From Eledone cirrhosa (taxonomy: Eukaryota): 64,000 bases of DNA. Made by a program: the position numbers and the translations under genes. The stretch covers positions 35,960,001 through 36,024,000 of the forward strand of contig OZ024740.1 in assembly GCA_964016885.1 (NCBI GenBank), read 5' to 3'. The first letter of the stretch is position 1; every line of letters begins with the position of its first letter. The notes below the pieces were generated by a model. The model was not told the DNA's origin, did no database searches, and saw only the letters and a list, made by a program, of their open reading frames with translations. Below are positions 1-61,037 of the stretch, one piece after another.

Positions 1-1159
1 GGGATCTCTTCAATGCTTTTTTGGTCCGCTTGGATCAGGAGCTACATCCCAGATCCGGACCAGTTCTCCTGCTTTTCTTTTGCTATTGCTATTATCTTGG
101 TGTTGGCTTCGATGCCGGCGAGGACGGCCGCTATTAGCCAGGGAATTTCGATGGCCGGTGGAACGTGGGTCACCCTGATCTTTACGATTCTCTGGCCACA
201 ATAGCTTGGGACGAGTGTGAAGTCGTCACTTCTTAATGGGGCCATGGAGTGTTCTCTAGCCTCCTCTGGTGTTTTAAAGAACGTCCACGGTTCCATACTT
301 CTGCCCACGTCTGATGTGGGGTTCTTTTTCCCACACATGTCCCAAAGCTTTTTGGATTTGGGACTCGGATGCCCGTTCCACTCGGCGCGATTTTATGTTA
401 ATTATCCGATAAGACACGGTGCATAGGCGACGTTGCTCCATTTTCTTAGGTGGGGTGGGGGTGGCTGACCCTCTACCCATCTTTCTTTACCATTCCTTTG
501 GCTTCTTCTAATTCCTCCTGAGTTATCTGGATCGCTTCGCACGTTTTTGCTACTCTGGGTGGTTTTTTTAATTTCATTGTTGCTATTGTTGTTATCGTTA
601 TTTTTGCTATTGTTAATTTTAGTTTCAGTTGTGCTGGTGGTGGCGTCAGTGGTGTTCGGTGTGGAAGAGTTCATTTTGGTTGAATTCACGAGTTAATTTT
701 TTTCTTCTTTTGTTTCTGTTGTCGCTGTGGTGGTGGTGGGGTGGTGGTTGTCGCGGTGGTGGTGGTTGCGGCTTTAACACCTGCAGTCATTGGTAATGGC
801 GGGAAATGAACGTCTGTCTGAGACAAATTAAAAATATTGCTACTGCTTACATTTCCAGTGTTGGCAAACGTAGCAATGTTTACAATGGTGGTGTCGGTGT
901 GAGGTGTTAGATTGTGAGGTAGGAGTGACTCTGAGTCAGCCATGATTTTTCAAAGAAAAATTTTTTATTTGATAATTATAAAAAGTTTAAATTTTGGGCT
1001 CATAGCCCCAATATTTTTGAGTGTCCTTTTCAGAAATCAATGTATGTGCACTTATATACAGTTAACAATAAACATTTTACATAAATGGCAATTTTAAACA
1101 ACTGAAAATAACAAACCTTTGCGGAGCTCACGATGATACGATTTATAACGTAGGTCGCC

Positions 1160-13639: not shown

Positions 13640-16600
13640 GCTCTCTTTATTAACCACAAGGGTTTACCTAAAGTAGACATTAAGGACAGTACAGGACAAT
13701 ACAGGACGGTACAAATGGGCATTTCTGCGTGTAAAAAAAACAGAGGATGTAATAAAAAATAACAATGAAAAATTCCCCAATAGGGGGAGACTTCCGAAGG
13801 ACATTTGTGGAAAAAGCCCATTAAAAGGCCACAGTGACCCTGGCCACCAGGGCAAGTGCTCTCTCCCAGTTTTCCACCTTTAATTTACAGACACAGACAT
13901 TAAGGACAGTACAGGACAATACAGGACAGTACAAAAGGGCATTTCTGCATGTAAAAAAAACAAGAAGCAGAGGATGTTATAATAGAACAATGAAAAAATT
14001 TTCCCCAATAGGGGGGAGACTTCCGAGGGACATTCGTGGAGAAAGCCCATTAAAAAGCCACAGTGACCCTGACCACCAGGGCAAGTGCCCTCTCCCAGTT
14101 TTCCACCTTTAATTTACAGTCACATACTCAGAGACATTCTTGCCTCTCTCACCCATCTTTCAACAAAATGCTGGGAAGAGAGCATTTCCCTCTCTACCTT
14201 GATTTTCCTTTTCAAATGAAATTTGAAAAAGTTAATCAGGGCATCACCGAAGAGGTAAGTGCTCGTCTTCAGCCCTTTCAAACGTGTCCACCATACTATC
14301 TCTTTCGCCATGGCCACCAGACAGATAAAAACTGCCCGCCCTTCTCGGCTAAAGGAAGAGGGCGGGGCAATCCTCACGATGGACTCAGATGATAGCTGGA
14401 TCCGTCCTACACGCGACAGCAGGTGTTCGAGATAAACCCACAAGTCAGCAATGCTCGGACACTGGACGAGTGAGTGCAGGACGGTTTCGTCGCCCTGAGA
14501 GCATCTCGGACATGCCCGGCTGACGGCACCTCCATGCGTGTAGAGTTTATCCCGAACTGGCAAAGCTCCCCGGTAGCACTGCCAGGCCAGGGATTTCTGG
14601 AAGTTGTCCAAAGGTCCCGGCCCGAAAGTTCTTCCGAAGAGATTGGCTAGTTGATTTTCGTCGACGCCTAGAGTTTCCCCAAGTACGTCGTCGCTCTTCC
14701 CCTCCACTAATCCTCTATAGAACGCCAAGGTGGAGTTTCCACCGATCACATTGCCCGATTGGTCGAGGGCTGTGAGCGCCTGAAGTCTTCGCTTGACCCA
14801 GGACTGCATCTCCGTCAAGGAGACGAGCTGGGGAAAGACGCGTCTAGCAAACGGCGACCACACCTGATCACCGTCGAGGAAGAGGTGGAGATGTTGTATC
14901 CTGAGCGCGTGTCTGCGCATCATCAGCCACGGCATTCCCAGCCCTCTACGTAGCGGGTGTTGAGAGCAAATGGACTGCCTGACCATCGGAGCGCGTCCCT
15001 TCCAAAAAAGCGAAAGAGCAAACGCTCCAGCGCACTCAGGCGAGGCTTAGAACAAAGTCCGACGGTCAGGCGGTAGTAGATGACGGACGCGATGTACGTG
15101 TTAGCCACCTCCGCTCGAACTTTCAGAGATAGCTTCCTCTCCACCTATTTCTGTGGGAGAGAAGCCACCCTGCTCGGCACCTTGTCCCAGTTTTTGTCCG
15201 TCTGGAGGTCCGGACCGAACCAGACCCCTAGCAATTTAACCGGTCCGTCCGTCCAGCGCCCGACGACGCTGTGGACGGCATGGACCTGCCTCTCCAGGTG
15301 CCGAGCTGCAGGCCCACTGACTTTTCCTGGTTGATCATTGCTCCTGTTACCGCTTCGTATTCTCTTAGTGTAGTGCCGATCGCCTCGATGTGTTTGGCGT
15401 TCGACACCACTACGATGATATCGTCCCCAAATACTGACACGGATCTTCCGCATCCTAGTTCGCGCGGGATCCCCCTCAACGTCTCCAGTTTGTGCAGTAA
15501 TAGCTCGAGAGTCAATACGTACAAGAGGGACGAGAGGGGACATCCTTGGCGGACCGAGCGCATGATGTTGAACGGTTCCGAAAGGTGACCGTTCACTCTC
15601 ACCACAGAGCAGATGTCGCTGTGCATGGCAGCGATCCAGCCTCTGAAGACGGGCCCAAAGCCATCCGCTCTCAGGACTGCCGCTAGGTAACGATGATCAA
15701 CCCTATCGAAAGCTTTCGACTGATCTAAATTGATCAAGGACCCACCCGTGCCAGGTTCGCTGGCTACCCTCTCCACGATGTATCACATGAGGTGGAGGTT
15801 GTCGTGGATGGATCTGTCGGGAATGGCGCATGTCTGCGCCTCTCCCACCAACGACAAGCGCCAACCTCTTTGCTAACACCTTGACCAAAATCTTGAACTC
15901 TGTGTTTAGCAGAGTTATGGTCCTGAAATTATCTATGTTATCCCCCTTGTTCGGATCTTTTCTCATCAGCGCCACCCCTCCTCGGCTCACAGAGCTGAGA
16001 ATTCTCCCGTTCTGTTGCCAGTTGCAGTAGACGTCGGCCAAGAGGCTTCCGAACAAGTCTGGAATCTGTACGTAAAGTTCGTAGGGCAGACCATCCAAAC
16101 CAGGCGATTTACCCCTTGTGCAGCCAGTCATTGCTTCCCGTACTTCAGTGGTTGTTATCGGCTTTTTGCAACACTCCGCCTGAGTGGCCGAGAGCCACGG
16201 CAGTTCGTCGAGGTAGGCACTAAAGTCCATGCCTCGATCCGGCCCGCCGCTGCCCCCGAACAGCTGAACGAAGTGTCGCTGAAAAGCTTCACACATTTTC
16301 CCGGGATCGAGTAGCATGCGCCCGTCGGGTTCCAAAAAGACTGGATCGTGGCTTTGTTTCCACGACGCGCCTCCGCCACTCGGGCCCATTGAACAGTTTT
16401 CGTCCCCTCGTGTCTGACAGCACGCATACTAGCTCTGACAACGCAGCCTTCGTGCTTTGCATTGAAGAATTGGTCAAGAGCCAATTTCGCCGCAAGCACG
16501 TCTGTGGCGATGCCTTTGCTAAACGCCTCGTCTAATTTTCTAACTAGTTCTCCCTCTGCTCTATTTTTCTCTATTGCTAAAGCCTTACTAAACCTAATGG

Positions 16601-16797
16601 ACTCTATTCTAATCGCTCTTTTCAGAGCAAACCACCATTTGTTGTTGAGGAAGGCCCCCGTCAACGCCCGTTTAACTAGTTTGCTAATCCGGTTTCTGTA
16701 GGCCTTACGCACTGTTAATGACGCGTTTAGCTTTCAGTAGCCGGGTCCCTGTCTATGAAGCCTATCTAAGTCAACCTCACAGATCACGAATTTATGG
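13640..16797 (-). mobile_element. Tx1/L1-clade LINE, 5'-truncated, frameshifted ORF2 (RT + C-terminal zinc finger), duplicated 3' UTR
   Basis: PGYWKLN, KSPGLDGLPYELY, NLDQSKAFDRVDH, SVRQGCPLS, FGDD, CPRC..ETVLHSLVQC; AATAAA then (ATT)n tail at 13568-13639. Confidence 0.92.
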
Positions 16798-24619: not shown

Positions 24620-28200
<3,581 letters not shown>

Positions 28201-28470: not shown

Positions 28471-28617
28471 GGTTATAAAACTAAAGCTGGAGGGAAAGGA
28501 TCACAGTTAAGCGGAGGACAGAAACAACGAATTGCTATTGCTCGAGCATTGATAAGAAATCCAAAAATATTGCTTTTGGACGAGGCGACGTCTGCTCTTG
28601 ATAGTGAAACGGAAAAG
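28471..28617 (+). CDS. ABCB1: ABCB1-like exon (signature LSGGQ, Walker B, D-loop)
   Basis: tttAG / GTATAT, 147 bp; [49 protein letters not shown]. Confidence 0.95.
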
Positions 28618-28879
28618 GTATATATTTTATCCTCTCTCTCTTTCTATCTTTCACTTTTAACTCAGAGATTTTCATTTGCACATATTTTGCCAAAAAGTTC
28701 TTAGTGCTCTTATTCATTCTAATGTTTTGTGTTACAACCGGAAAGAATGACCTTACGTATTAAGTTGTCTATACTTTCTACTCTCTTTACTTATCTTTAA
28801 CACTGTTCTCTATATGTAAATTATTAAGGACCAAACATGAGCTTATTCTAGATCCCTCATTTGGGAAGACATCTTCTGC

Positions 28880-29370
28880 GGCATGTTCTCCACCTCCACC
28901 TTAGTCGCTTCGGTCACAAACCCCGGCATCACAGCCCGCCTCGCAGAAGAACGTAAAATAAACAAATACCGGGGTTTTGTCCAGCCGCTTCCTCTTCGCG
29001 CCGGTCGCCGCCGAGATCTCAGGCGTACTTGGACTCCTTACTGCCGAGCTCCTCTGCAAGATCGGAACGTCGGCGGCCCGTCTGAGGAAGGAGCCCCGCG
29101 AGGTTGGGTGGCTGTTGCAGCGGGTGTCACTGACCATTGTCTGTGGGAATGCTTTTGCAGTCTTGTCCGCGGGACGCAGCTCTTCTTCCCCCATGCCTAA
29201 GGCCCAAAGCCCAATCACCCTCCCCATCCACCCCTCCCTCTCTCTTCTGCGACACCAGAGTTCTGGCCATCCCTCCCCTTCCCATTCTTTTTTCTTTCTT
29301 TTTATCTTTTGTTTTCTTTTCTTTTTTTATTATTGCTGTTATTATAGTTGTCATTACTATCATTATTATT
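28880..29370 (+). mobile_element. CRE-like 3' fragment with T-rich/(ATT) tail
   Basis: AEERKINKY..FAPVAAEISG..GWLLQRVSLTIVCGNA. Confidence 0.75.
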
Positions 29371-29518
29371 AATGGCGACTTGCGTCGGAAAACATCTTAT
29401 CGTGAGCTCCTAAAGGTTTGTAGTTTTAAGTTGTTTTGAATTGCCAGTTATGGAATATTTTTGTTGTTAACTGTTTATAAGTTCATATAGTTATGTAATA
29501 AACAACATAAGGCAATTA

Positions 29519-29578
29519 TTCCATTTACCAGTGGTTTCTTAAAAGCAAAAGATTTTGCTTTCAATCCTCAGAATGAAA
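29519..29578 (-). ncRNA. Type I hammerhead ribozyme motif (mirror copy)
   Basis: exact reverse complement of 29643-29702. Confidence 0.85.
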
Positions 29579-29642
29579 AAATCCTGGTCTGTTTATTGAA
29601 TTTGGATTTTAAAATCCAAATTCAATAAACAGACCAGAATTT

Positions 29643-29702
29643 TTTCATTCTGAGGATTGAAAGCAAAATCTTTTGCTTTTAAGAAACCACTGGTAAATGG
29701 AA
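29643..29702 (+). ncRNA. Type I hammerhead ribozyme motif
   Basis: stem I UUUCAUU/AAUGGAA; core CUGAGGA (29650-56); stem II UUGAAAGCAAA/UUUGCUUUUAA; GAAA (29683-86); stem III ACC-ACU-GGU; GUA triplet, predicted cut after 29695. Confidence 0.85.
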
Positions 29703-31671
29703 TAATTGCCTTATGTTGTTTATTACATAACTATTAAGCTCTGTTACCTACATAGAGCACTCTTTTTTCCTGGACTTTTCCGACGGAATTACTTCATTTA
29801 TAAGTTCATATATATAGTTTCTGAAAAGGACACTCAATAATATTGGGGCTTGAGCCCAAATCTGAACTTTATTTTGTCAAATAAACAATTTTTTTTTGTA
29901 AAAAAAAACCCAGCTGTCACGTGACAGCGGCTCTAACATAAACACCATTCCCACCATCACCATCGTGAACCTTGCTACAATTGCCAACACCGATAACGTT
30001 TTCGCTAACAGCAGCAGCAGCAGCAACAGCAGTCGCCAAAGTTTTCCACGTGCAGACGTAAGCATTCCACCTTTGCCAATGTCTACAGGTGTTAAAGCCA
30101 CCATCTCCACCGCCACAATGTCTCGTGATAACAAAATGGATTCTCCCACAATGTCGACAGTCACGTCGAATGCCAGTGACACCACCACAGCAACAACTGA
30201 AACAAAAAATAATAAAGGACTGGGCTTCTTCTTCGGGAACAGAAAATACTTAAGCTCTGATGAGTTGTCGTTCCTCAATAAAATAAAGTGTAATATACAT
30301 TATATACTTACTAATGTATCCAGAAATGTGCCGCTGTTATACTGACAAATATAATACTATACTCAAGAAATTACTACTCTCTGATTTACTAAAATTCCCA
30401 ATAATCACGCAGATATACTTTTTATCCTTTCTGTCTTTTTTTACTGCAACTACAAAAACACATAGCTGCTTTCAATTATCAGGTTGTATACTTACTTCAT
30501 CTAATCCTGTTTAATGTATCCACTAATATTTTACTCGTCAATGCAACGTTGTTCTTTTTCAAACCAGCAGTGGGTACTTTCATCAATCATCTCAAGAAAT
30601 ACTGCTTTCTGAATGTGCCCCTTTGCCCGCTTGTTTACTATATTCAAAACACGTCAAACTGAACGTCAATTGCATTGAAGTAAACTCTTTAAGAGTGCTG
30701 AAAATGTTGATAAGTATTCGTTGAAAATTAGGAAGAGATTCGAGAATAGAGCAATCTTTTGAAAAAATATAAAGGAAGTTTAGATTTGTGAGATGTCTAT
30801 GAGAGATTGAAATGTGGATAGCTACATCAGAAGTAGTGTACGGAAAAATATATTTGAGTAATTTTGAAATAGTATAAGCAAATTTAGACAAGAGGCAACA
30901 ATGATAGTTCAAATAAAAATAAGAAATAACGTCCTGAACACTTTCTAAAAAGATTGTGATCATCTGGCACACAATAAATGAATATATTTGAGAGTTGTAT
31001 GATATCACTAACTGACCGTGATCAAAGTATGAATAATCCATGTCTTTGACTAATATATGTAGAAAACATCGCCTGATGGAAATCAATGATTGGTTTTAGC
31101 AAACGGTTGTTCAATACTGATTGGAAAAGACGAAATGTCCCTCTACTTTAAAGAGTAGAACGTCTGAGGCACAATATATTTGACTGATTTTCAACCATCT
31201 TAATTTGATTTATATACTTTAGTAATATCATTTCTTTCTCTTTCTCTTTCCACACTTACATACTACAGTAGACTTTCTATACTACTCTACTCCATACCTT
31301 AATAAATATTACCATCTCTATATTATATTCCTGCACATATTACTCTACTTCTTCTATAGTCTACGAACACTAACACCTGTATGGTTTCGCTTTTCAAATT
31401 TACATCTTGGAGTTATTTCCCTTTGCTATAATACGTTTTTCGTAAACTAACGTTTTTAGAACACGTTGCTATTAACGGTATCTTATAAACTCGTATAAGC
31501 GTCTCAAGATTAGGTCACAATTTTGATCTCGCTTACATTCTAGATATATGGTCAATATTGGGCCTTGAAGCCTTAGGTAGCGCTTTTGTTCCGTGTATGA
31601 ACATAAATAAATAAATAATATATGGCCTCAGCCGGATGGCTGAAACAGGTAAAAGAGTAATATATATATAT

Positions 31672-31784
31672 AGTAAATGAGTGAAGGATAACGTGAATCG
31701 GCTGTACAATAGGGTTTATTGAAAGTATTACTTTGAATAAACCCTACTGTACTGCCGATCCACGTTATCCTTCACTCATTTGCT
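31672..31784. repeat. Imperfect palindrome (56-bp arms)
   Basis: AGTAAATGAGTGAAGGATAACGTG...CACGTTATCCTTCACTCATTTGCT, about 5 mismatches, next to (TA)n. Confidence 0.85.
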
Positions 31785-31908
31785 TACCTAGGAAGTGTCT
31801 TGAAACGGCCACCCGACTGGTGACCCAAACAACGCCGAACGTTAAAACGATCCTCGATACAGAGTACTCATAACCTCTACTTGGATTACCTTACACGATA
31901 TCTCGTTA

Positions 31909-31950
31909 ACACACGCGCACACACACACACACACACACACATACACACAC

Positions 31951-32042
<92 letters not shown>
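31909..32042. repeat. (CA)n(TA)n microsatellite
   Basis: direct reading. Confidence 0.95.
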
Positions 32043-32044
<2 letters not shown>

Positions 32045-32129
32045 TAGTTTTGTCAATCAATAATTTGTGAATTTATTATCTGATATTAGATAAAGTAATT
32101 TTCTTATTTATTTTTGTAATCCATTTCAG

Positions 32130-32324
32130 ATTGTTCAAGAAGCTCTTGATAAAGCCAGAGCAGGCCGTACCTGTTTAGTTGTTGCCCACAGACTTTCAAC
32201 AATTAAGAATGCTGACAAAATAGCTGTCATAGTTGATGGCAAGGTACATGAAATAGGAACACATACTGAATTAGAGGAGAACAGGGATGTTTACTTTGAT
32301 TTACTTAAAAATCAAACTCTTTAA
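32130..32324 (+). CDS. ABCB1: ABCB1-like terminal coding exon (H-loop, stop)
   Basis: tttcAG acceptor; [67 protein letters not shown] (stop 32322-32324). Confidence 0.95.
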
Positions 32325-32557: not shown

Positions 32558-32606
<49 letters not shown>

Positions 32607-32609
<3 letters not shown>

Positions 32610-32862
32610 GAAAGTGAACAATACAAAATATAACTACTCCATTACCAAAAGTTTCTGGCTCACAGACGATAATAATATACGTCTGGATTGTTCGTAACAT
32701 CTATATCTGACGAAAGATCCAGACGTATATTATTATCGTCTGTGATCCAGAAACCTTTGGTAATGGAGTAATTATATTTTGTGTTGTTCACTTTCTAATT
32801 AAATAGCTCTGTTCTATACATAGAGTACTCTTTTTTCCTTTGCTTTTCCTTTGGAATTACCT
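32607..32862 (+). mobile_element. Second inverted-repeat/hammerhead element of the same family
   Basis: arms 32607-32688 / 32717-32798; CTGACGA 32707, CAGACG/CGTCTG stem II, GAAACC-TTT-GGTA; 3' tail AGCTCTGTT..ACATAGAG.ACTCTTTTTTCC..GGAATTAC shared with 29737-29792. Confidence 0.75.
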
Positions 32863-33729: not shown

Positions 33730-33856
<127 letters not shown>

Positions 33857-33987
33857 TCTGGCAATATTATAACACTATGACCCTCCCCAAGTATATGTAT
33901 GTAAAAGGTAAACAGAAATAACAACACAATCGGTACAGTATATGGAAGGAATATATTAGGTTAACGCTTGAAATACCAGGAAGAAGG

Positions 33988-34022
33988 TTTTAAGGTTTCG
34001 GACGCTAGTCCTTCATCAGAAG
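33988..34022 (-). ncRNA. Minimal Penelope-type hammerhead remnant
   Basis: minus strand CUGAUGA-A-GGAC-UAGC-GUCC-GAAA-CCUUA; stems I and III weak. Confidence 0.55.
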
Positions 34023-34132
34023 AAAGAATGAGAAATAAGATAGATTGAAGGGACCGGCGGGGTGGAATTGGAAAATATGTCGTTAGATAAAAATAACAGG
34101 TCCATTCATGTTGACATCTCTTGGAAGGAGAG

Positions 34133-34298
34133 AAGAGTGCTCTATGTATTGTATAGAACTATTTAATTACATAATAAACAACACAATATAATTATTTCAT
34201 TACCGACGAACGAACTGGATGTTTCTTGCAAGGATCATCTAGTTTCTTGAAACCTTCTGTAATGAAATAATTATATTGTGTTGTTTATTATCTAATTA
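34133..34298. mobile_element. Third inverted-repeat/hammerhead family copy (degenerate)
   Basis: arms 34164-34203 / 34259-34298; CCGACGA..AACTGGATG/CATCTAGTT..GAAACCTTCTGTAATG; family tail in reverse at 34133-34160. Confidence 0.65.
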
Positions 34299-34647
34299 TA
34301 TATATATATATATAACGAAGGAAGTGTGGTAAGGAACCAGGTGGACCATAACGCACCAGAGTACTCAATACTTTGGGTAGTAGAGTGGGTAATAGGAAAT
34401 ATATATATATATATATATATATATTGGAAAATGTGTGAGATCCTTGGTACAGTTAGGTATATTTTAAAAAAAGGTAAAGAATGACTTCACTTGTAGTTCT
34501 AAACAATTTGATTTAATTTTATGATATTATGATTTGGTTGATGGAGTAAGTTCTTTGTTAACTTCGGTGGGAAGAATTTTAAAGATTCCTGGTTAACTTT
34601 CGTGGAGAACTTTCTCGCATTCGTCGGTGGTGGTGGGGATTGGCAAG

Positions 34648-34744: not shown

Positions 34745-35144
34745 CGGTGTGTGCTGTGTGTGTGTATGTGTGTGTGTGTGTAAATAGTAAATAGAAATAA
34801 CAAAGCAAACAACATAGTACAACGAGGAAATATATTAAGAGAAAATAGAGTTATCTGCTTTTTGTAGGCAGTTTTACGTTTTTGAAAAGTGGATTTGCGT
34901 AACAAACAGGAAAAAGCAACTTACCAGTTAGTCGTGCTAAACGCTCTCAATGGAGTTATGTAACAAATATCTTGATGATACAAGATGCATCACCGAGTGT
35001 GGTACTTAGGTTTCAAGGAGTGATCCATGGAATAATATAATATACACGGGATATCAGGAAAAACTACTAACATTTATTTATACAATATTGTATCAATAAA
35101 CGTTTCTTTGAACTTCAATAAATGTTGCCTAGTTCTTCTCGTTT

Positions 35145-43343: not shown

Positions 43344-46300
43344 TTTCATTTATTGGCCACAAGGGCCGACATATAGGGGACAATACAAAAGACTGGGACA
43401 GTGGGGTTTTACAAAAAAATCGAGTAAACAATATGAATAAACAAAGTAACAATAACAAAGTAACAATAAAGTAACAAGAACATTACAACAAGAAAACATT
43501 CCCCAATAGGTTCGCCCAGGTACCCCACCAGTCCTGAACGACCCGACGCTTCGAGAGAACCCTGGAAGGGCACCCCTCTCCTCTTCAAATTTACCTACCT
43601 ACAGCCGCATGACCAGAGTAGGTCCACTCACACGGGCCATTCTCGCCACATTCACCCACCTTTCAGCAAATGTACTGGGGGGAAGCACTTCTCTCTCCAC
43701 CCTCACCTTCCTTTCCAAATGAAACTTGAAAAAGTTGATGAGGGATTGGCCGAAGAGAAAAGTGTCTGTCTTCAGTCCTTTCAACCTCGTCCACCATACA
43801 ACCTCTTTCGCTACTGCCACCAGACAGAGGAAAATTGCCTGCCCTTCCTGGCCAAAAGAAGGCGGCGGGTCTATCTTCACTATGGACTCGGCCGATAGCC
43901 GGATCCGTTCTACACGCGACAACAGCTGTTCAACATAACTCCACAAGTCAGTAATGCACGGACACTGGACGAGTGCGTGCAGAACGGTTTCGTCACTCTG
44001 CGCGCATCTCGGGCAGGTCCGTCTGACAGCACTTCCGTGCCTGTAGAGTTTATCTCGAACCGGTAGTGCCCCCCGGTAGCACTGCCAAGCGAGGGTTTTT
44101 TGGAAATTATCCATCGTCCCCGGCTCGAAAGTCCTCCGGTACAGACTGGTTAGTTCGACTTCGTTGACTCCCAGAGCCTCTCCGAGTGCGTCGTCGCACT
44201 TGCCCACCACTAATCCTCTATAGAACTCGAGAGTGGAAGTTCCACTGACCGCATTGCCCGCCTGCTAGAGGAGAGTGAGTGCCTGGCAACATTCCAGATG
44301 CCAGTCACCCAGTCTCGGTCTCTTCTTGACCCAGGACTGCAACTCAGTCAAAGAAACGAGCTGCGGAAAGGCCCGTCTGACAAAGGGCGACCACACCTGT
44401 TCACCGTTTAGGCAGAATATCTGGAGATGCCGCAGCCTCAGCGCGTGCCTGCGCATCATTAGCCACGGCATGCCCAGCCATCCACGTAGAGGGTACTGGC
44501 AGCAGATGGACCGCCTCACCAGCGGAACCTAACCCCTCCACAAGAATTTGAAGAGGAGCCGCTCCAAGATGGCGAGGCGCGAACGGGGGCAAGGGACGAC
44601 AGGCAGACGGTAGTAGATGACGGACGCGATGTACCCGTTCGCCACCTCAGCCCGACCTTTCAGTGATAGCTTCATCCCAGCCCATTGCTGGGTGAGACTG
44701 ACTACCCTGCCCGTCACCTCGTCCCAATTCTTATCCACCTGGAGGTCTGGCCCGAACCAAACCCCTAGCAACTTTACCGGTCCGTCCGTCCAGCGCCTTA
44801 CGACGCTGTTGGACGGCATGGACTTGCCTCTCCAGGTGCCGAGTTGCAAGCCCACTGACTTTTCCGGGTTAAGTTTTGCTCCCGTCAACCTTTCATATTC
44901 CTCCAATAAGTTGACGACCACCTCGATTTCTGAGGTGTTCGACACCATCATGGTGATGTCGTCCGCATAAGCCGACACAGCCCTTCCGCGTCCCGGTTCG
45001 AGCGGGATGCCCTGTAACAGCTCCAACTTCCGCAGTGAAGGCTCGAGAGTCAATACGTACAGAAGGGAGGAGAGAGGGCACCCTTGACGGACCGATCGGG
45101 AGACCTGAAACGGTTCCGAGAGGTGGCCATTAATTTTGACCATCGAGCAGGTGCAGCTGTGCATTGCAGCGATCCAGCTTCTGAAGACGGGGCCGAAGCC
45201 AGCCGCCTTGAGGACAGCCTCCAGGTACCGATGGTCGACTCTATCGAATGCTTTCGATTGATCTAAATTGATCAGAGCCCCACCGAAGCCAGGTTTACAC
45301 CCTACCCTCTCTATGATGTATCGCATTAGGTGGAGGTTGTCGTGTATGGACCTGGTTGGGATTGCGCAAGTTTGCGCCTCCCCAACCAAATCCCCGACGA
45401 CAAGCGCCAACCTCTTCGCTAACACCCTGGCCAAAATCTTAAACTCTGTGTTGAGCAGAGTTATGGGCCTGAAATTGTCTAATGTGTCCCTCTTGTTCTC
45501 GTCTTTCCTTATCAGCGTCACTACGCCCCGGCTCACAGAACTGGGAATACTCCCGTTTTGCTGCCAGTTGCAGTAGAGCGCTTCGAGGAGATTGGAGAAC
45601 AAGTCTGGCATATTTACGTAAAGCTCGTAGGGCAGACCATCCAAACTGGGTGACTTGCGCCTCATACAGCCGACAAGGGCATCCTGAATCACGGCTGAAG
45701 TAATTGGCCTTTCGCAGCGCCCAGCGTCAGCCGTCGAGAGTTGCGGCAAGCCATCGAGGTAAGGACTGAAGTCGCCACCATCTCTGACCCGCCACTTCCC
45801 CCGAACAACCGAGCAAAATGTTGGCGAAAGGCCTCACACATCCTCTTGGAATCGTTCAGCTCGAGACCGTCTCGATCCGTCAAAGACCGAATCGTGGTTT
45901 TATTACCACGCTGCGCCTCTGCCGGGCGGACCCTTCGAACACCTTTGGTTCCCTTGTTTCTCAGAGCACGCGCCTTAGCTCTGACAATGCAACCTTCGTG
46001 TTTCGCATTGAAGAAATGGTCTAATGCCATTCTCGCCGCTAGCACATCAGTTGCAATGCCACTACCAATAGCCTCGTCTAACTTATCTACCAACTCTCCC
46101 TCCTTTCTATTTTTCTCTAATGCTACTTCTTTGCTAAACTCTATCGACATTACTCTAATCTCTCTTTTGAGAGCCCCCCACGATCTATTGTTGACGACTC
46201 CCCCTGTCAACTTTTTCTTAACTAAATTGTTGACCTGGTACCTGTAAGCCTTACGTGCCGGAAATGACATGTTTAGCTTCCAGTAACCAGGTCCTAACCT

Positions 46301-49190
46301 ACGCGTCTTATCTAGGTCGACCATACAGATCACAAACTTGTAATCTGAATAGGCGACCGTTTCAAAACGTGGACAGCTTACACTATTTCTGTCTATTTTC
46401 CTAATGAATATCTTGTCTATATACGATCTAGATGACCCTATGCGGTTAGCCCAGGTCCACACTGGCGCATTAGGGAAATCTAGTCGGTACCTGTCAGACA
46501 GTTGGAACTGGCTGATCAGGTTCTTGAGGCTTTTGCACCCCACGCTCCTATCGGATACTCCCACACAGCCCCAGCGTGCGTCTAAGATGCCGTTCCAGTC
46601 CCCCGCTAACAGTAAAGGGCGAGACGTACCCAGAAAGGCTTCCAGGCGTCTAAAGAAGTCCGGCTGTCCTGCCCCAGTAGGAGCATAGACGGCCACCAGT
46701 CTAAAGGCACCACCTTCGTTATTGTTCACGTCCAGGACCACCAACTTCCCGTCCGGATCCCGGAAGATCGACCTTACCTCGAGGTCCAGGCCTTTCCTAA
46801 ACAGCACTGCCACCCCGCCTCCCATTCCCGGCTGGCTAACAGATGCAAAGATCTGATAGTCGTCGAAAATGGGGACTAGTGCGCGCGTGTCGGAAATCCT
46901 GGTCTCGCTGACTGCAATTACATCCATTTCTATAGACCTGAGGTCGTTGAGCAGGTGACCCTGCTTCCAGGACGATCCCAGGTCTCGAACATTTAAACAT
47001 CCTACTCTTAATACGGCCACGTTGGCAGGTTAAACAGAGAGAGAGGTTTACTTACCTTCCGGGCTCTTGTGAAGGTCGGGTTGTTCGACCTCCATAGTTA
47101 GTGGGATTTCTTTTGGGACCTCTTTAAAAGTCTTGAAGTGGGTTTTACGTTCGGGGTTCCCACGTCCCGAGGAAAGCTGTCTCGTATTTCTTTGAATATG
47201 TCGAGCGACATTCGCACCAGAAATGTGCTCGATTTAAAAATTTCCCCCTCTTTTTGTATATTTTCACTTCGTGCTACGAGGGCCATCAGTTCCTTGTTGG
47301 CCCTCCTGACGAGCACGAAGTTTTATATGTTTTGTTGGTGTGATTTTATTTGTTTTCGTGGCTGTGGTGGTGATGGTTTTGGTGGTGTTGTTTCAGTTGT
47401 ATCTGTGTTTGTTGTGAGAGCGGTGTCTGTGGTTTCAGATGTTTGTGTGTATATTTGTTGTTGCGTCTGTTTCGGTTGTTTGTGCTTGGGGAATTCTGGT
47501 GATGGTGATGGTGGTGTTGATGTTGGTGTTATTGGAGAGATGTTTGCGTGGGTGGTGTCTGCGTTTTTTATTATGCTTGCTTTTGTGCTTTGTTGAGTTT
47601 TTTTTTCTTTTTGTGTTTCCTTTTTTGTATTTTGGGGGATTTTGAATTTCCCTCATTTTCACTACTGGTAGATGAGGGGTCTGTGTCTGTATGTGTGTCT
47701 GTATGTATGCTTATGGTTTTATTGGTGTGTGTATTATTATTTTTTTTTTGGGGGGGGGGGGATTTGACAGCTTTCCTCGTTTCCCCCCTGGGTTGTCAAT
47801 GTTGGTGGTGGTCTTTCTATTGGTGTTGTTGTTGGTGGTGGTTTTGCCGGTGCTGGTGTTGGTTGTGGTCCTCGCCCCGGCGTCGGCAGCAGTGGAGCCT
47901 TTCGACCCCTTGCCTCTTTCAGCAGTTGAGGGCAGAATGCTCGCAAATGGGTATTTTCCCCACAAACAAAACACTGCGGCCGTCCATTCTGAAGGCGCAC
48001 GTGGTCCGGGATTGTCTTCACATTTTCGGGCCTGATCTAGAGAAGGATCTCCAGGTCAACCCCGGATCAGTCCTCTCTGGTCGTTCTGGTCACTTCTATA
48101 GGGACGGTATCCGTCCCCTCCACAATCACACATCCCAGAAGCCATCTCATGTCAAGTCCTGGTGGGATTCTGGGAATGCGGAGACGGGCCGTTCTTTTTC
48201 CCATGTGGGAGGGGTACATTATGACCTTGCTGGTTTTGCAAGGAGTCATAGCGTGTTTCATAGCGAGGGCTTCTGACTTGAACAACACCGAAATGGTGCC
48301 GTACTGTCTGCCCCTCTCTATGTATTCGGTGTCTTCTCTGATGCACCTCAGCGCGACTTCGATATCTGCTTGTGGGATTAAAGCTGCCCTTTTGGTTTGT
48401 GCTGAGGTGCATCTATAATGCACCGTTCTGCGCCCACTGCTTCAATAGCTTCTACCGGGACAGTTAAGTTGGCCCAGGTTTGCTCTTGCTTGATGAGCTT
48501 CCATGCCTGGGCCAACTTTTCATCTTTGTTTGAGAGGTCCATGTTGAATCATGGCTTCTTTTTTGCTGCTGGCGCAGCGAAAGTGTTCTTCTTGTTTTCG
48601 TTGGGGGTGTTGTTATCGTTGTTCTTGTTGGTGTTGTTGTTAGCACTGTCGCTGTTATCATTGTTGTCTTTGTTGCCAACGTTGTTCTCGGTGCAGTTGG
48701 TATTGTTGCTGTTGGTGTTGTCGCTATTTGTTTTCATGTTGGTGGTGTTGATATTGTTGTTGTATTTGTTATTTTTTTTTTGTTATCTGTATTTTCGTTG
48801 TCGCTGTTACTGTCATTTTTTTCAAAATTAGAGTTCTCATTGGTATCATTGGTGTCTTTGTTTACATTGTTTGTGGTGGTGTTTGTGTTATCAATTTGTG
48901 TTAATTTCGCTGTAGCGATCCTCTCAACTTCCACGTCGTTGTCGCACGACAGCAAACATATCGCTGGGGGGCGTGGCTCAGCCATGTTTTTTTTCTCCGT
49001 AAATGTTTTAACATGTAAAAAAAATTCAAATATTTGGGCCAAAAGGCCCAAATATTATACTTTCCCCTTCACAGGGCAAAGTCTAAGGGCTTATATCCCT
49101 TACACAACGAGAAATATTTAACAACAAATAATTGTAACAGGCAAATAAAGCGACTTACTGGGAGCGAGCAAAATACGTCCGCTTAGACCA
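43344..49190 (-). mobile_element. Full-length Tx1/L1-clade LINE (~5.85 kb), mildly decayed
   Basis: 5' UTR; ORF1 ~48985-47050 with CCHC knuckle RPQCFVCGENTHLRAFC; ORF2 47020-43599 with APE (GCLNVR, SETR, VYAP, GDWN), RT (AYADD) and zinc finger; AATAAA and tail. Confidence 0.95.
43599..47020 (-). pseudogene. Tx1 ORF2 (APE-RT-ZnF), broken by a frameshift near 45740 and stops near 44530 and 44265
   Basis: ORF-track segments 45689-47020, 44529-45749, 44265-44519, 43599-44210. Confidence 0.9.
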
Positions 49191-49213: not shown

Positions 49214-52200
49214 GCTTTCTTTATTAACCACAATGGTTTACACAAAGTAGACATTAAGGACAAACGGGCATTTCTGCGTGTAAAAAACAACAAAAAAACA
49301 GAGGATGTAATAAAAGAACAATGAAAAATTACCCAATATAGGGGGGGGGGGGGACTTCCGAGGGCCATCGTGGAGAAAGCCCATTAAAAAAAGCCACGGC
49401 GACCCTGACAACCAGGGCAAATATCCTCTCCCAGTTTTCCACCTACAATTTACAGGCATATACTCAGAGTAGGTCCATTCACTCGGGCCATTCTTGCCTC
49501 TCTCACCCATCTTTCAATAAAATGCTGGGAAGAGAGCACCTCCCTCTCTACCATGATTTTCCTTTTCAAATGAAATTGGAAAAAGTTAATCAGGGCATCA
49601 CCGAAGAGGTAAGTGCTCGTCTTCAGTCCTTTCAGACGCGTCCACCATACTATCTCTTTCACCATGGCCACCAGACAGATAAAAGCTGCCTGCCCTTCCC
49701 GGCTAAAGGAAGAGGGCGGGGCAATCATCACGATGGACTCAGCTGATAGTCGGATCCGTTCTACACGCGACAGCAGGTGTTCGACATAAACCCACAAGTC
49801 AGCAATGCTCGGACACTGGACGAGTGCATGCAGGACGGTTTCGTCGCCCTGCGCGCATCTCGGACATTCCAGGCTGACGGCACCTCCATGCCTGTAGAGT
49901 TTATCCCGAACTGGCAAAGCTCCTCGGTAGCACTGCCAGGCCAGGGATTTCTGGAAGTTGTCCATAGGCCCCGACCCGAAAGTTCTTCCAAAGAAATTGG
50001 CTAGTTGATTTTCGTCGACGCCTAGAGTTTCCCCAAGTACGTCGTCGCTCTTCCCCTCCACTAATCCTCTATAGAACGCCAAGGTGGAGTTTCCACCGAT
50101 CACATTGCCCGATTGGTCGAGGGCTATGAGCGCCTGAAGACATTCCAGTCTCCAAGCGCTCCCTCTCGGTCTTCGCTTGACCAAGGACTGCAGCTCCGTC
50201 AAGGAGATGAGCTGGGGAAAGACGCGTCTAGCAAACGGCGACCACACCTGATCACCGTCGTGGGAGAGGTGGAGATGTCGTAGTCTGAGCGCGTGTCTGC
50301 GCATCATCAGCCACGGCATGCCCAGCCCTCCATGTAGCGGGTGTTGACAGAAGATGGACCGCCTGACCACCGGAGCGCGTCTCTTCCACAAAAAGCGAAA
50401 GAGCAAACGCTCCAGCGCAGTCAGGCGAGGCTTAGGACAAGGCACGACGGTCAGGCGGTAGTAGATGACGGACGCGATGTACGCGTTCGCCACCTCCCCT
50501 TGACTTTTCAGGGGTAGCTTCTTCTCTGCCCATTTCTGGGGGAGAGAAGCCACCCTGCTCGTCACCTCGTCTCAGATTTTGTCCGTCTGGAGGTCCGGAC
50601 CGAACCAGACCCCTAGCAATTTAACCAGTCTGTCCGTCCAGCGCCCGACGACGCTGTTGGACGGCATGGACCTGCCTCTCCAGGTGCCGAGCTGCAGTCC
50701 CACCGACTTTTCCTGGTTGATCATTGCTCCTGTCGCCGCTTCGTATTCTCTTAGTGTAATGCCGATCGCCTCGATGTGATTGGCGTTCGACACCACTACG
50801 GTCACATCGTCCGCATATGCTGACACGGATCTTCCGCATCCTAGTTCGCGCGGGATCACCCTCAACGTCTCCAGTTTGTGCAGTAGTGGCTCGAGAGTCA
50901 ATACGTACAAGAGGGACGAGAGGGGCATCCTTGGCGGACCGAGCGCATGATGTTGAACGGTTCCGAAAGGTGACCATTCACTCTCACCACAGAGCAGATG
51001 TCGCTGTGCATGGCAGTGACCCTGCCTCTGAAGACGGGCCCAAAGCCAGCTGCCCTCAGGACTGCCGCCAGATAACGATGGTCGACCCTATCAAGGACCC
51101 ACCCGTGCCAGGTTCCCTAATTACCCTCTCCACGATGTATCGCATGAGGAGGAGGTTGTCGTGGATGGATCTGTCGGCAATGGCGCATGTGTGCGCCTCT
51201 CCCACCAGACCACCAACGACAAGCGCCAACCTCTTTGTAGCACCTTGGACAAAATCTTGAACTCTGTGTTTAGCAGAGTTATGGGCCTGAAATTATCTGT
51301 TATCCCCCTTGTTCGGATGCTTTCTCAGCAGCACCACAGCTCCTCGGCTCACAGAGCTGGGAATTCTCCCGTACTGTTACCAGTCTGGCATGTGTACGTA
51401 AAGTTCGTAGGGCAGACCATCCAAACCAGGCGATTTACCCCTTGTGCAGCCAGTCATTGCCTCCCGTACTTCAGCGGCTTTTATCGGCTTTTCGCAACAC
51501 TCCGCCTCAGTGACCGAGAGCCGCAGCAGTCCGTTGAGGTAGGCACTAAAGTCCATCCCTCGATTCGGCTCGCCACTGCCCCCGAACAGCTGGGCGAAGT
51601 GTCGCTGAAAAGCTTAACATATTTGCCCGGGATCGAGTAGCATGCGCCCGTCGTGGTCCACCAAAGACCGGATCGTGGCTTTGTTGCCACGACGCGCCTC
51701 CGCCACTCGGGCCCATTGAACAGCTTTCATCCCCTCGTGTCTGAGAACACTCACCCTAGCTCTGACAACGCAGCCTTCGTGCTTTGCATTGAAGAATTGG
51801 TTGAGGGCCAATTTCGCCGCAAGCACGTCGGTCGCGCTGCCTTTACTAAGCGCCTCGTCTAATTTTCTAACTAGTTCTCCCTCTGCTCTATTTTTCTCTA
51901 TTGCTAACGCCTTACTAAACCTAATGGACTCTATTCTAATCGCTCTTTTCAGAGCAAATCACCATTTGTTGTTGACGATGGCCCCCGTCAGCGCCCGCTT
52001 AACTAGTTCGCTGATCCGGTCCCTGTAGGCCTTGCGTGCTGTTAACGACGCGTTTAACTTCCAGTAGTCGGGTCCTTGTCTATGAAGCCTATCTAAGTCA
52101 ACCTCACAGATCACGAATTTGTGGTCCGTGTACTCGACTATTTCGAATTGTGTACAGCCTATGCTAGACCTATCTATTTCCCTACAAAATACTCTATCTA

Positions 52201-52230
52201 GATACAATCTGGATGACCCGATTCGGTTAG
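49214..52230 (-). mobile_element. Tx1/L1-clade LINE, 5'-truncated, same subfamily as 13640-16797
   Basis: high identity to 13640-16797 by eye; AYADD; several small deletions. Confidence 0.92.
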
Positions 52231-52639
52231 GGTTACGGTTAGCGTTACGGTTAGTGTAAGCCTATCGTTCAAGCGTTGACTAAAAACTATCTCTTCGCCA
52301 TCTTTTTTCTCCCCTCACACACTCTGTCTGCCTGTCTGACTATCTTTCTCTCTCTCTCTCTCCCTCTCCCTCTCTCTCTCTCCCCCTCTCTCTTTCTCTC
52401 TCTATTTTTTTTAGGATCCCTGCGACTGAAGTCTATTTCTCGTCGTATTTGTGTGGAATGAATATGTAAACGATAGTGAAAGAACAGCTTACAAGATATT
52501 TTTCTCAACATGGTTAATGGAGTTTTCGAGTATGGTAAAAGGTTCCAAGAATTCACAGAGTAATTTAGTATAAAGTATTATATTAGGAAAAACAGGCAAG
52601 GAGTGAAGAAAAATCTAAAGAGAAATTAATTTGATCAAA

Positions 52640-56924: not shown

Positions 56925-57125
56925 TCTAATTTAGGTACAAGGCAAGCAAATTTTGAGGGAAGAGCATAGTTTATGAAATCTACTCCAGTACAATATGTTA
57001 TCAACCCCGGAAGGAGGAAAGGCAAAGTTGACCTCAGTGGGATTTGAACACAGAGAGCAGAGTGCCAGAAGGAATACCATAAAACATTCTATCCAACGTT
57101 CTAACGACTCTGCCAATTCGCTGCC
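56925..57125 (-). mobile_element. SINE family 1, diverged
   Basis: matches consensus. Confidence 0.7.
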
Positions 57126-57220
57126 TAAGAGAAGGAATAGTGATATCAAAATTGCTGTGTTTTAGTAACCACGGAAGGATGAAAGACGAAGTAATGCGTC
57201 AAGTGATTTGAAAATAAAAG

Positions 57221-57261
57221 GGTAGTTTCTGTCTGTCTGTCTCTGATAAAGTACTGTGGTA

Positions 57262-57316
<55 letters not shown>

Positions 57317-57426
57317 GATAAAGTACTGTGGTAGTGTCTGTCTGTCTCTCTCTCTCTCTCTCTAGATGAAGTACTGTGGTAGTGTCTGTCTCTCTCTCTC
57401 TAGATAAAGTACTGTGGTAGTGTCTG

Positions 57427-57460
<34 letters not shown>

Positions 57461-57792
57461 GATAAAGTACTGTCGTGGTGTCTGTCTGTCTCTCTCTCTC
57501 TCTCTAGATAAAGTACTGTGGTAGTGTCTGTCTGTCTGTCTCTCTCTCTAGATAAAGTACTGTGGTAGTGTCTGTCTCTCTCTCTCTCTCTCTAGATAAA
57601 GTACTGTGGTAGTGTCTGTCTGTCTCCCTCTCTCTCTCTCTCTAGATAAAGTACTGTGGTAGTGTCTCTCTCTCTCTCTCTCTCTAGATAAAGTACTGTG
57701 GTAGTGTCTGTCTGTCTCTCTCTCTAGATAAAGTACTGTGGTAGTGTCTGTCTCTCTCTCTCTCTCTCTCTCTAGATAAAGTACTGTGGTAG

Positions 57793-57834
<42 letters not shown>

Positions 57835-57946
57835 GATAAAGTACTGTGGTAGTGTCTGTCTGTCTCTCTCTCTCTCTAGATAAAGTACCGTGGTAGTGTC
57901 TGTCTGTCTGTCTCTCCCTCTCTCTCTAGATAAAGTACTGTGGTAG

Positions 57947-57983
<37 letters not shown>

Positions 57984-58467
57984 AGATAAAGTACTGTGGT
58001 AGTGTCTGTCTGTCTCACTCTCTCTCTAGATAAAGTACTGTGGTAGTGTCTGTCTGTCTCTCTCTCTCTCTCTAGATAAAGTACTGTGGTAGTGTCTGTC
58101 TGTCTCTCTCTCTCTCTCTCTAGATAAAGTACTGTGGTAGTGTCTGACTGTCTCTCTCTCTCTCTAGATAAAGTACTGTGGTAGTGTCTGTCGGTCTCTC
58201 TCTCTCTCTCTCTAGATAAAGTACTGTGGTAGTGTCTGTCTGTCTCTCTCTCTCTCTAGATAAAGTACTGTGGTAGTGTCTGTCTGTCTCTCTCTCTCTC
58301 TCTCTAGATAAAGTACTGTGGTAGTGTCTGTCTGTCTCTCTCTCTCTCTCTCTAAAAAAAGTACTGTGGTAGTGTATGTCTGTCCTCTCTCTCTCTCTCT
58401 CTAGATAAAGTACTGTGGTAGTGTCTGTCTGTCTCTCTCTCTCTCTCTAGATAAAGTACTGTGGTAG

Positions 58468-58507
<40 letters not shown>

Positions 58508-58569
58508 GATAAAGTACTGTGGTAGTGTCTGTCTGCCTCTCTCTCTCTCTAGATAAAGTACTGTGGTAG

Positions 58570-58638
<69 letters not shown>

Positions 58639-58667
58639 AGATAAAGTACTGTGGTAGTGTCTGTCTG

Positions 58668-58708
<41 letters not shown>

Positions 58709-58811
58709 AGATAAAGTACTGCGGTAGTGTCTCTCTCTCTCTCTCTCTCTAGATAAAGTACTGTGGTAGTGTCTGTTTGTCTCTCTCTCTCCAGATAATG
58801 TACTGTGGTAG

Positions 58812-58846
<35 letters not shown>

Positions 58847-58867
58847 AGATAAAGTACTGTGGTAGTG

Positions 58868-58907
<40 letters not shown>

Positions 58908-59067
58908 GATAATGTACTGTGGTAGTGTCTGTCTGTCTGTCTCTTTCTCTCTAGATAAAGTATTATGGTAGTGTCTGTCTCTCTCTATCTCTATCCATCT
59001 AAAGTACTGTGGTAGTGTTTCTCTCTCTCACTCTCTCTCTCTCTCTAGATAAAGTACTGTGGTAGTG

Positions 59068-59100
<33 letters not shown>

Positions 59101-59123
59101 AGATAAAGTACTGTGGTAGTGTC

Positions 59124-59169
<46 letters not shown>

Positions 59170-59532
59170 GATAATGTACTGTGGTAGTGTCTGTCTGTCT
59201 GTCTCCCTCTAGATAAAGTACTGTGGTAGTGTCTCTCGGTCTGTCGCTTCCTCTCTCTCTAGATAAAGTACTGTGGTAGTGTCTGTCCGTCTGACTCTCT
59301 CTCTCTAGATAAAGTACTGTGGTAGTGTCTCTCTCTCTCTCTCTCTCTCTCTAGATAAAGTACTGTGGTAATGTCTGTCTGTCTCTCTCTCTCTCTAGAT
59401 AAAGTACTGTGGTAGTGTTTGTCTCTCTCTCTCTCTATCTCTCGCTAGATAATGTACTGTGTAGTGTCTGTCTGTCTGTCTCTCTCTCTCTCTCCCTCTC
59501 TCTTTAGATAAAGTACTGCGGTAGTGTCTCTC

Positions 59533-59586
<54 letters not shown>

Positions 59587-59758
59587 GATAAAGTACTGTG
59601 GTAGTGTCTGTCTGTCTGTCTCTCTCTCTCTAGATAAAGTACTGTGGTAGTGTCTGTCCGTCTGTCTCTCTCTCTCTCTCTCTCTAGATAAAGTACTGTG
59701 GTAGTGTCTGTCTGTCTGTCTCTCTCTCTCTCTTTCTAGATAAAGTACTGTGGTAGTG

Positions 59759-59793
<35 letters not shown>

Positions 59794-60292
59794 AGATAAA
59801 GTACTGTGGTAGTGTCTGTCTGTCTCTCTCTCTCTCTCTCTTAGATAAAGTACTCTGGTAGTGTCTGTCTCTCTCTCTAGATAAAGTACTGTGGTAATGT
59901 CTGGCTGTCTCTCTCTCTCTATAGATAAAGTACTGTGGTAGTGTTTGTCTCTCTCTCTCTCACTCTCACTCTCTAGATAAGTACTGTGTTAGTGTCTGTC
60001 TGTCTCTCTCTCTCTCTAGATAAAGTACTGTGGTAGTGTCTGTCTCTCTCTCTCTATCTATCTAAAGTACTGTGGTAGTGTCTCTCTCTTTCTCTCACTC
60101 TCTCTCTCTCTCTCCCTCTCTCTCTAGATAAAGTACTGTGGGTAGTGTCTGTCTCTGTCTCTCTCTTTCTCTCTCTAGATAACGTACTGTGGTAGTGTCT
60201 GTCTGTCTCTCTGTCTCTCTCTCTAGATAAAGTACTGTGGTAGTGTCTGTCTGTCTGTTTCTCTCTCTCCCTCTAATAAAGTACTGTGGTAG

Positions 60293-60360
<68 letters not shown>

Positions 60361-60694
60361 GATAAAGTACTGTGGTAGTGTCTGTCTGTCTCTCTCTCTC
60401 TCTCTCTAGATATAGTACTATGGTAGTGCCTGTCTGTCTGTGTCTCTCTCTCTCTCTCTCTCTAGATAAGTACTGTGGTAGTGTCTCTTTCGCTCTCGCT
60501 CTCTCTCTCTCTAGATAAAGTACTGTGGTAGTTTCTGCCTGTCTCTCTCTGTCTCACTCTCTCTCTCTCGCTCTCTCTCTATCGCTCTCTAGATAAAATA
60601 TTGTGTAGAGTCTGTCTCTCTCTCTCTCTCTAAATAAAGTACTGTGGTAGTGTCTGTCTGTCTCTCTCTCTCTCTAGATAAAGTACTGTGGTAG

Positions 60695-60731
<37 letters not shown>

Positions 60732-60959
60732 AATAAAGTACTGTGGTAGTGTCTCTCTCTCTCCCTCTCTCTCTCTCTCTCTATCTCTCTCTATATTAAG
60801 TATTGTGGTAGTGTCTGTCTGTCTCTCCCTCTCTCTAGATAAAGTACTGTGGTAGTGTCTGTCCGTCTGTCTCTCTGTCTCTCTAGATAAAGTACTGTAG
60901 TAGTGTCTGTCTGTCTGTCTCTCCCTCTCTCTCTAGATAAAGTACTGTGGTAGTGTCTG

Positions 60960-61019
<60 letters not shown>

Positions 61020-61037
61020 GATAAAGTACTGTGGTAG

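Follow-up and report, generated by a model that had tools for sequence, protein, structure and literature searches.

The closest described relatives of the insertion analysed here are probably the Penelope-like elements (PLEs). As laid out in the available parts of PMC8557442, the PLE signature consists of an inverted 5'-truncated copy, a tail of 30-40 bp at one end, a hammerhead ribozyme in the pseudo-LTR (pLTR) and a bias towards microsatellites. The accessible sections of PMC3846280 likewise describe PLE insertions as an inverted pLTR with a tail and a target-site duplication (TSD) of 8-10 bp, and report head-to-head palindromic junctions. The hammerheads of metazoan PLEs have a palindromic helix III, show little or no activity as monomers and conserve the pair G10.1-C11.1 (PMC4209133, in its available parts). 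In Anolis, a PLE protein that is predicted to form a dimer cuts and extends both strands of AT-rich targets and starts reverse transcription (RT) at two sites bounding the tail (PMC11167929). The hammerhead of that element cut only when protein was present, and its site coincided with the end of no RNA-seq read; inverted copies are not treated in the paper, whose lone use of the word 'inverted' concerns a blocking nucleotide (PMC11167929). The origin of the inverted repeats and tails of PLEs is stated to be unresolved in the portions consulted of PMC8557442, PMC3846280 and PMC11167929, with self-priming on an antisense template as a published alternative (PMC3846280, same portions).

Here we describe an insertion, E1, in an intron of an octopod ABCB1-like gene, within a window of 64 kb (the whole stretch of DNA that was analysed). 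Its architecture is known for PLEs, and the locus itself is ordinary. We propose, with a probability of roughly 0.72 for the explanation as a whole, that E1 is the 5'-truncated end of a PLE (a pLTR with hammerhead, plus tail) from a high-copy octopod family, that the mirror half is built anew at each insertion, and that its hammerhead, which would be of the dimer-dependent type, was carried along from the parent RNA as a passenger.

Results

A palindromic insertion with a tail on one side

E1 is made up of the following parts.

29474-29489, no strand: left TSD, 16 bp, the last 3 bp of which also pair with the element
29490-29610, minus strand: tail-less inverted arm, hammerhead-sense on the minus strand
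29607-29614, no strand: palindrome centre TTTTAAAA, self-complementary
29611-29734, plus strand: tail-bearing arm, hammerhead-sense on the plus strand, which is the ABCB1 strand
29735-29796, plus strand: one-sided tail, 62 bp, with the family 3' end near 29790-29797
29797-29812, no strand: right TSD, 16 bp

The two arms (29487-29610 and 29611-29734) are each 124 nt long and complementary at 123/124 positions, with a 0-nt loop and a single mismatch at 29583/29638. Their fold reaches -207.7 kcal/mol (z -29), a value that none of 100 shuffles equalled, and arm alignment and fold together confirm the 248-bp near-palindrome with one mismatch and no loop that had been called from the sequence. The two copies of the TSD are A+T-rich and identical at 16/16 positions, and the insertion proper (29490-29796) measures 307 bp. 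The outermost 3 bp of the left arm are part of the TSD, a microhomology at the arm end. Because the 62-bp tail extends one side, the inverted repeat is not the whole insertion. The first-pass annotation thus had the palindrome and the TSD right; it left the tail uninterpreted and overlooked two sister copies within 5 kb.

The host site

E1 lies within two larger features.

28618-32129, plus strand: last coding intron of the octopod ABCB1-like gene, flanked by exons 28471-28617 and 32130-32324
29324-30216, plus strand: host repeat, a decayed LINE 5' region split by E1, with a paralog bearing the empty site at 1209-610 (minus strand)

The ABCB1-like gene has a GT donor after 28617, an AG acceptor before 32130 and a stop codon at 32322-32324; since the stop follows that acceptor, E1 sits in the last coding intron. 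Octopus and Argonauta ABCB1-like proteins match the last exon at 78-80% identity, which makes the host an octopod, and splice sites, stop codon and exon identity all agree with the location first given.

A paralogous repeat (1209-946, minus strand) aligns across the E1 site at 80% and carries the target once only. The 16-bp repeat is therefore a real target duplication, and this empty site, with the 16/16 identity, secures the earlier claim of a ~307-bp insertion with a perfect TSD. The paralog runs into an ORF (45-392, minus strand) that has related ORF1-like frames elsewhere in the window, at 48285-48061 (E 3e-10) and 27953-27792 (E 1e-8), and Pfam PF03372 and PF00078 mark endonuclease and RT frames at 44532-47029; five of the seven frames compared with Pfam had no family, the ORF1-like frames among them. 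The host repeat is supported as a LINE 5' region, and it is this part of the original placement in a Tx1 5' UTR that the paralog, by leading into an ORF1-like frame, bears out.

Other repeats surround the site. Several decayed LINE copies that still show frames for an APE endonuclease and for RT occur on the minus strand at 14100-16700, 24900-27950, 43600-48400 and 49450-52300, some of them in ABCB1 introns. A further high-copy repeat (28870-29270; summed depth up to 3e4) sits to the left of the host LINE region and has a relative near 56695. A long satellite of (AG)n-rich units round a repeated motif occupies 57100-63800 and ends at a 200-N gap.

A type I hammerhead motif in each arm

29643-29702, plus strand: type I hammerhead motif, recognised by a strict descriptor and by fold
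29519-29578, minus strand: mirror copy of the motif, with the core starting at 29571 and H17 at 29526

On the plus strand, a 7-bp stem I (29643-29649 with 29696-29702) encloses the core CUGAGGA (29650-29656), a stem II of 11-12 bp (29657-29682), GAAA (29683-29686) and a helix III formed by the palindromic ACCACUGGU (29686-29694), followed by GUA with H17 at 29695 and a predicted cut after 29695. CUGANGA, GAAA, NUH, three helices and an open helix I are all present, as type I requires, and the hammerhead shape lies within 0.5 kcal/mol of the minimum-energy fold. The descriptor matched exactly twice in the 64 kb, once in each arm of E1, and never in 100 block shuffles; it passes over the sister copy E2 and a motif at 34019 (both described below) and is therefore strict. 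A type I hammerhead in each arm, as claimed, is borne out by a full core on both strands, the word 'intact' applying to the motif as a sequence.

The first-pass annotation had proposed a search with Rfam hammerhead models, and none matched: neither at gathering score across the 64 kb, nor by E-value on 2.5 kb or on 91 nt (with E up to 10 on the latter). Rfam miRNA matches, far under their gathering scores, were rejected as hairpin noise.

Helix III positions 15.2-16.2 and loop 3 are palindromic, as in the dimeric hammerheads of PLEs, whereas the G10.1-C11.1 pair of those ribozymes is U-A in E1. For the isolated arm (29640-29706), pair probabilities are about 0.6-0.8 in stem I and 0.7-1.0 in stem II, with helix III at 0.13 at 37 C and 0.05-0.09 at 10-25 C; a longer slice (29640-29712), folded unconstrained, does not take the hammerhead shape (z -1.1). 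A two-copy co-fold gives the dimer-hammerhead shape, with an energy gain of -8.0 kcal/mol that 129 of 300 shuffles equalled. As modelled, the E1 monomer is probably a weak or slow ribozyme.

Sister copies fold back at different points

32600-32862, plus strand: sister copy E2, with 101-nt arms about 90% complementary and the same tail, its left end against (TA)n
34112-34302, minus strand: sister copy E3, with the tail on the left and the tail-less end against (TA)n

A profile search of the window gave six matches, three tailed and three tail-less, so that all three copies consist of two arms and one tail. Their tail-less arms end at the same place (profile position 93-95 in 3/3), and their centres are unlike. 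The centre of E1 lies 39 nt upstream of the core; that of E2 lies about 4 nt upstream of its CUGACGA core, which cuts stem I short; and that of E3, CTTGCAAG (34226-34233), lies past the core, with no CUGANGA in either arm. Over arm and tail, E2 and E3 are about 75% identical to E1 (85/113 and 62/81), and within each copy the arms agree at 88/96 (E2) and 49/55 (E3). Judged from these letters, E2 and E3 are older than E1; no clear TSD was found for either. A 7-bp hairpin in the tail (29738-29758 in E1) is kept in 3/3 copies, with one-sided changes, at z of -3.0, -1.4 and -1.5, only that of E1 standing out alone. The tail also has a terminal TTCC-NNN-GGAA stem (29778-29788 in E1), which is present in E2 too.

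Two further structures were seen nearby. A fourth hairpin in the same intron (31675-31890, plus strand) has 53-nt arms and abuts (TA)n on its left. About 110 bp follow, the end of which resembles the E2 tail, with 4/2000 shuffles as good, compared with 1346/2000 for the E1 tail and 110/2000 for the E3 tail, and the structure is possibly a distant stub of the same kind, one without the CUGANGA core. A minimal-hammerhead-like motif (33850-34110, minus strand; core at 34019) has CUGAUGA, one bulged A, GAAAC and a 4-bp stem II with a G-C closing pair; it adjoins the E3 tail and ends at an (ATA)n tract, and a decayed relative lies at 34775-34837. This motif has no Rfam hammerhead match and likely represents another PLE family.

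A high-copy family with two fixed ends

Four of the 11 listed public runs, none of them recorded as RNA, were compared with the window at 88% likeness. Summed contig depth over the outer arms and tail was 4.1-4.6e5, against 13.5-15.7 for two unique-flank contigs; the ratio, near 3e4, is an order of magnitude only and no true copy number. The family is very high-copy, roughly of the order of 10^4. A run under another species label held 60- and 83-nt pieces identical to E1, the longer of which ends at 29797. In raw reads from a further sample, the match ends at 29790 in 370 of 477 molecules, whose flanks are mixed (agreement 0.33); 272 reads depart from the arm near 29485, and what follows is mostly (TA)n. 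These common stops indicate that the two ends are fixed family-wide.

The centre, in contrast to the ends, is free. Among the 15 joints listed of 91, at least 6 join left arm to right arm at other centres, on sides of 23-32 letters, which is short. One of them, 29580>29641, is exactly symmetric, and three others of the six, 29511>29717, 29515>29711 and 29518>29717, lie outside the ribozyme; one listed arm-to-arm joint was seen in 5 raw reads as well. With sister copies folding back at different points and joints showing further centres, the palindrome is not supported as the fixed mobile unit it had been taken for. Records continue beyond 29614 into differing letters (a loose end, X4, behind 29614 and a record, X1, at 29614); the source sequence is therefore longer, and E1 is 5'-truncated. 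Many raw reads end their match inside the arm and go on into mixed letters found nowhere in the window (185/300 at 29602 and 752/938 at 29514), so that not every family member is a simple palindrome, and subfamilies or non-palindromic copies exist. The inner stops at 29514 and 29602 (mirror 29707 and 29619) are possibly extra termini or subfamily boundaries. The arm-to-tail depth ratio ran from about 1.1 to 3.4 over four runs, too scattered to give a palindromic share, and metagenome pattern scans returned 0 matches, twice. Joints 29485-29490>29818 were considered as an empty allele of the E1 locus and rejected; their letters resemble the paralog at 1043-1036, and we read them as empty sites in paralogous LINE copies.

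Discussion

Probable assignment to Penelope-like elements

Several features of EN+ PLEs recur here. In 3/3 copies an inverted 5'-truncated copy is joined head to head and a tail stands at one end. The hammerhead in the terminal repeat is complete in E1, shortened in stem I in E2 and absent from E3; a TSD is present in E1, and the targets are AT-rich or microsatellite, E2 and E3 abutting (TA)n as the 272 raw reads mostly do. The tail of 62 bp and TSD of 16 bp exceed the published 30-40 bp and 8-10 bp, and no PLE ORF adjoins any of the three copies in the window; with these long parts and no ORF linked, E1 is assigned to the PLEs by signature only, and to no clade. Of the early description as a young non-autonomous ribozyme retroelement, what is supported is a young retroelement insertion of PLE type with type I hammerheads, the signature recurring in every copy. 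Our literature search found no paper on the E1 family; subscription papers, Repbase and Dfam lay outside its reach, and the family may therefore already be catalogued.

A palindromic MITE or fold-back DNA transposon with a chance hammerhead-like motif is very improbable. Such elements have terminal inverted repeats at both ends and a short fixed TSD, and E1 has neither. It is short, ORF-less, high-copy and palindromic, as a MITE would be, and palindromic Harbinger repeats exist in the frog (PMC5625713, in its accessible part); however, its inverted repeat is not terminal, given the one-sided tail in 3/3 copies, the TSD is 16 bp, the centre varies and the full hammerhead core is beyond chance.

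Formation of the head-to-head copies

Both strands of E1, when followed 5' to 3' from their respective target ends, run antisense to the hammerhead RNA. The tail end is where the bottom strand starts; the top strand starts at the inner end, where it overlaps the target by 3 bp, and these two positions are common to the three copies. We can outline a series of steps that would give this arrangement. The PLE endonuclease would nick both target strands 16 bp apart, and reverse transcription would be primed from both target 3' ends, at about 29796, where the tail ends, and at the inner start, about 29731-29734, the inner priming being aided in E1 by the 3-bp microhomology. Both cDNAs would head toward the 5' end of the RNA and stop early, after which they would be joined head to head, in E1 at the self-complementary centre. 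We weigh two-end priming against snap-back self-priming at about 55:45, the two not being separable with three copies, and slightly favour the former because a fixed inner end then needs no further step. No two-end priming model for head-to-head PLE copies was found in the literature searched. Since the stubs are short and very high-copy, with two fixed ends and a free centre, the choice between the two can be tested by counting.

It is improbable, though the least so of the rivals considered here, that a longer palindromic master derived from a PLE inserted whole and that the centres diversified later, via deletion of the unstable hairpin middle. Long palindromes tend to lose their centres, which fits, and arms are shorter in the older copies, E2 and E3, than in the young E1. 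However, E1, young and near-perfect, is already truncated relative to the records that run past 29614, its centre is loop-less and symmetric, and variable head-to-head junctions are described as products of PLE replication in the available part of PMC3846280.

Masking and editing

In the full E1 unit, whichever strand is read, stem II has a mean pair probability of 3e-15 and stem I one of 3e-55; the hairpin is predicted to zip while transcription passes its centre. Sequestration of the ribozyme by the duplex, as first claimed, is thus what the modelled pair probabilities predict, and the stub is predicted to be silent because transcription of either strand always reaches the anti-ribozyme arm first. 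The accompanying idea of masking as a function is not supported, since centres vary and some lose the ribozyme, and neither is the protection of the host transcript that it implied. Masking comes automatically with a head-to-head arrangement, whether or not a ribozyme is present, as seen in E2, in E3 and at the joints; as the monomer helix III is weak, there is perhaps little cleavage to mask. Fast intronic ribozymes reportedly harm splicing, slow ones being said to have no effect.

These points bear on a second rival, slightly less probable again, in which a dedicated palindromic non-autonomous unit moves whole, its self-masking selected for life in introns and its cleavage released by editing or unwinding. 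Both E1 hammerheads keep a full core, the masking is predicted to be complete and co-transcriptional, the copies lie in or just past a gene, and Fong 2009, as cited in PMC10919898 (available in part), finds that fast intronic ribozymes disturb splicing. That same work, however, finds that only fast ones do so, slow ones having no effect, and the unlike centres that often remove the ribozyme, the automatic masking and the weak helix III all argue against this reading; a fully duplexed RNA would, moreover, presumably be a poor template. On our preferred account of a 5'-truncated PLE end, the predicted self-silencing is probably a by-product and not a means of control. The E1 stub is itself probably a dead end and, beyond offering long dsRNA, would play no part in regulating ABCB1.

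In Octopus bimaculoides both the rate of hyper-editing and the proportion of loci that could form near-perfect duplexes are exceptional, and editing is heavy in lizard Penelope and in frog palindromic repeats (PMC5625713, in the sections available). By analogy, editing of the E1 duplex is plausible; a gate in which editing controls cleavage is improbable, because hyper-editing would likely also strike the A-rich core. E2 begins about 280 nt beyond the ABCB1 stop codon, ahead of the first AATAAA (33177), with an ATTAAA inside it at 32798. Being upstream of that AATAAA, its 100-bp hairpin may lie in the mature ABCB1 3' UTR, which would make it a better editing candidate than the intronic E1. With four hairpins in 5 kb of this window, self-folding PLE stubs are candidates for a source of dsRNA in octopods.

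In a bolder extension, which we consider rather doubtful, the PLE stubs of octopods, numbering on the order of tens of thousands, would be records of two-ended priming. A dimeric RT-endonuclease would copy template RNA from both nicks, beginning at two tail-bounding sites, possibly with two RNAs held by the palindromic helix III, the cDNAs would be fused head to head, and the ribozyme-silencing hairpins so formed would be a main source of the near-perfect dsRNA behind octopus hyper-editing. If true, two-ended priming would account for the long-unexplained inverted-repeat-plus-tail signature of PLEs.

A last reading would have a plain repeat copy at this locus turned into a palindrome by a fold-back artefact, arising in assembly or from chimeric reads; it could appeal to the fact that none of the listed public contigs or reads covers the E1 locus end to end and that such structures trouble assemblies (PMC8557442, in its available parts), but it is very unlikely given the exact 16-bp TSD with its correct return to the host repeat, the one site at which the arms differ, two aged sister palindromes with diverged arms (88/96 and 49/55) and arm-to-arm joints in raw reads of another sample.

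Comparison with known systems

Metazoan non-LTR retrozymes, as described in the available portions of PMC7229834 and bioRxiv 10.64898/2026.07.22.740005, resemble E1 in being short, ORF-less, low in G+C and PLE-related, with a type I hammerhead and a long TSD. They are head-to-tail tandems that can yield circles, whereas E1 is head-to-head and has no two ribozymes on the same strand, and a retrozyme identity was rejected on this ground. The palindromic Harbinger repeats of Xenopus, which are ADAR substrates, are also self-folding repeats of about 200-250 bp that need no partner copy, but they are DNA transposons with a palindromic consensus (PMC5625713, in part).

The dimer-type hammerheads of PLEs share with E1 a conserved core and a short palindromic helix III; E1 differs from those in the accessible part of PMC4209133 by U-A for G-C at 10.1-11.1, a stem II of 11-12 bp, a 7-bp stem I and the lack of an Rfam match. 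Poseidon PAc of Anolis (PMC11167929) resembles E1 in its AT-rich targets and in having, about 40-100 nt beyond the hammerhead, two fixed ends between which lies a tail with a stem-loop. The PAc ORF starts at stem II, whereas the E1 frame from stem II closes at 29735-29737, with no start evident.

Compared with the EN+ PLEs (Penelope/Poseidon, Neptune) covered by the available sections of PMC3846280 and PMC8557442, the E1 family is a stub only, of about 190-310 bp with no ORF seen, and its tail and TSD are longer. It shares with them the head-to-head inverted 5'-truncated copy, the one-ended tail, the TSD, the hammerhead in the repeat and the AT-rich or microsatellite targets.
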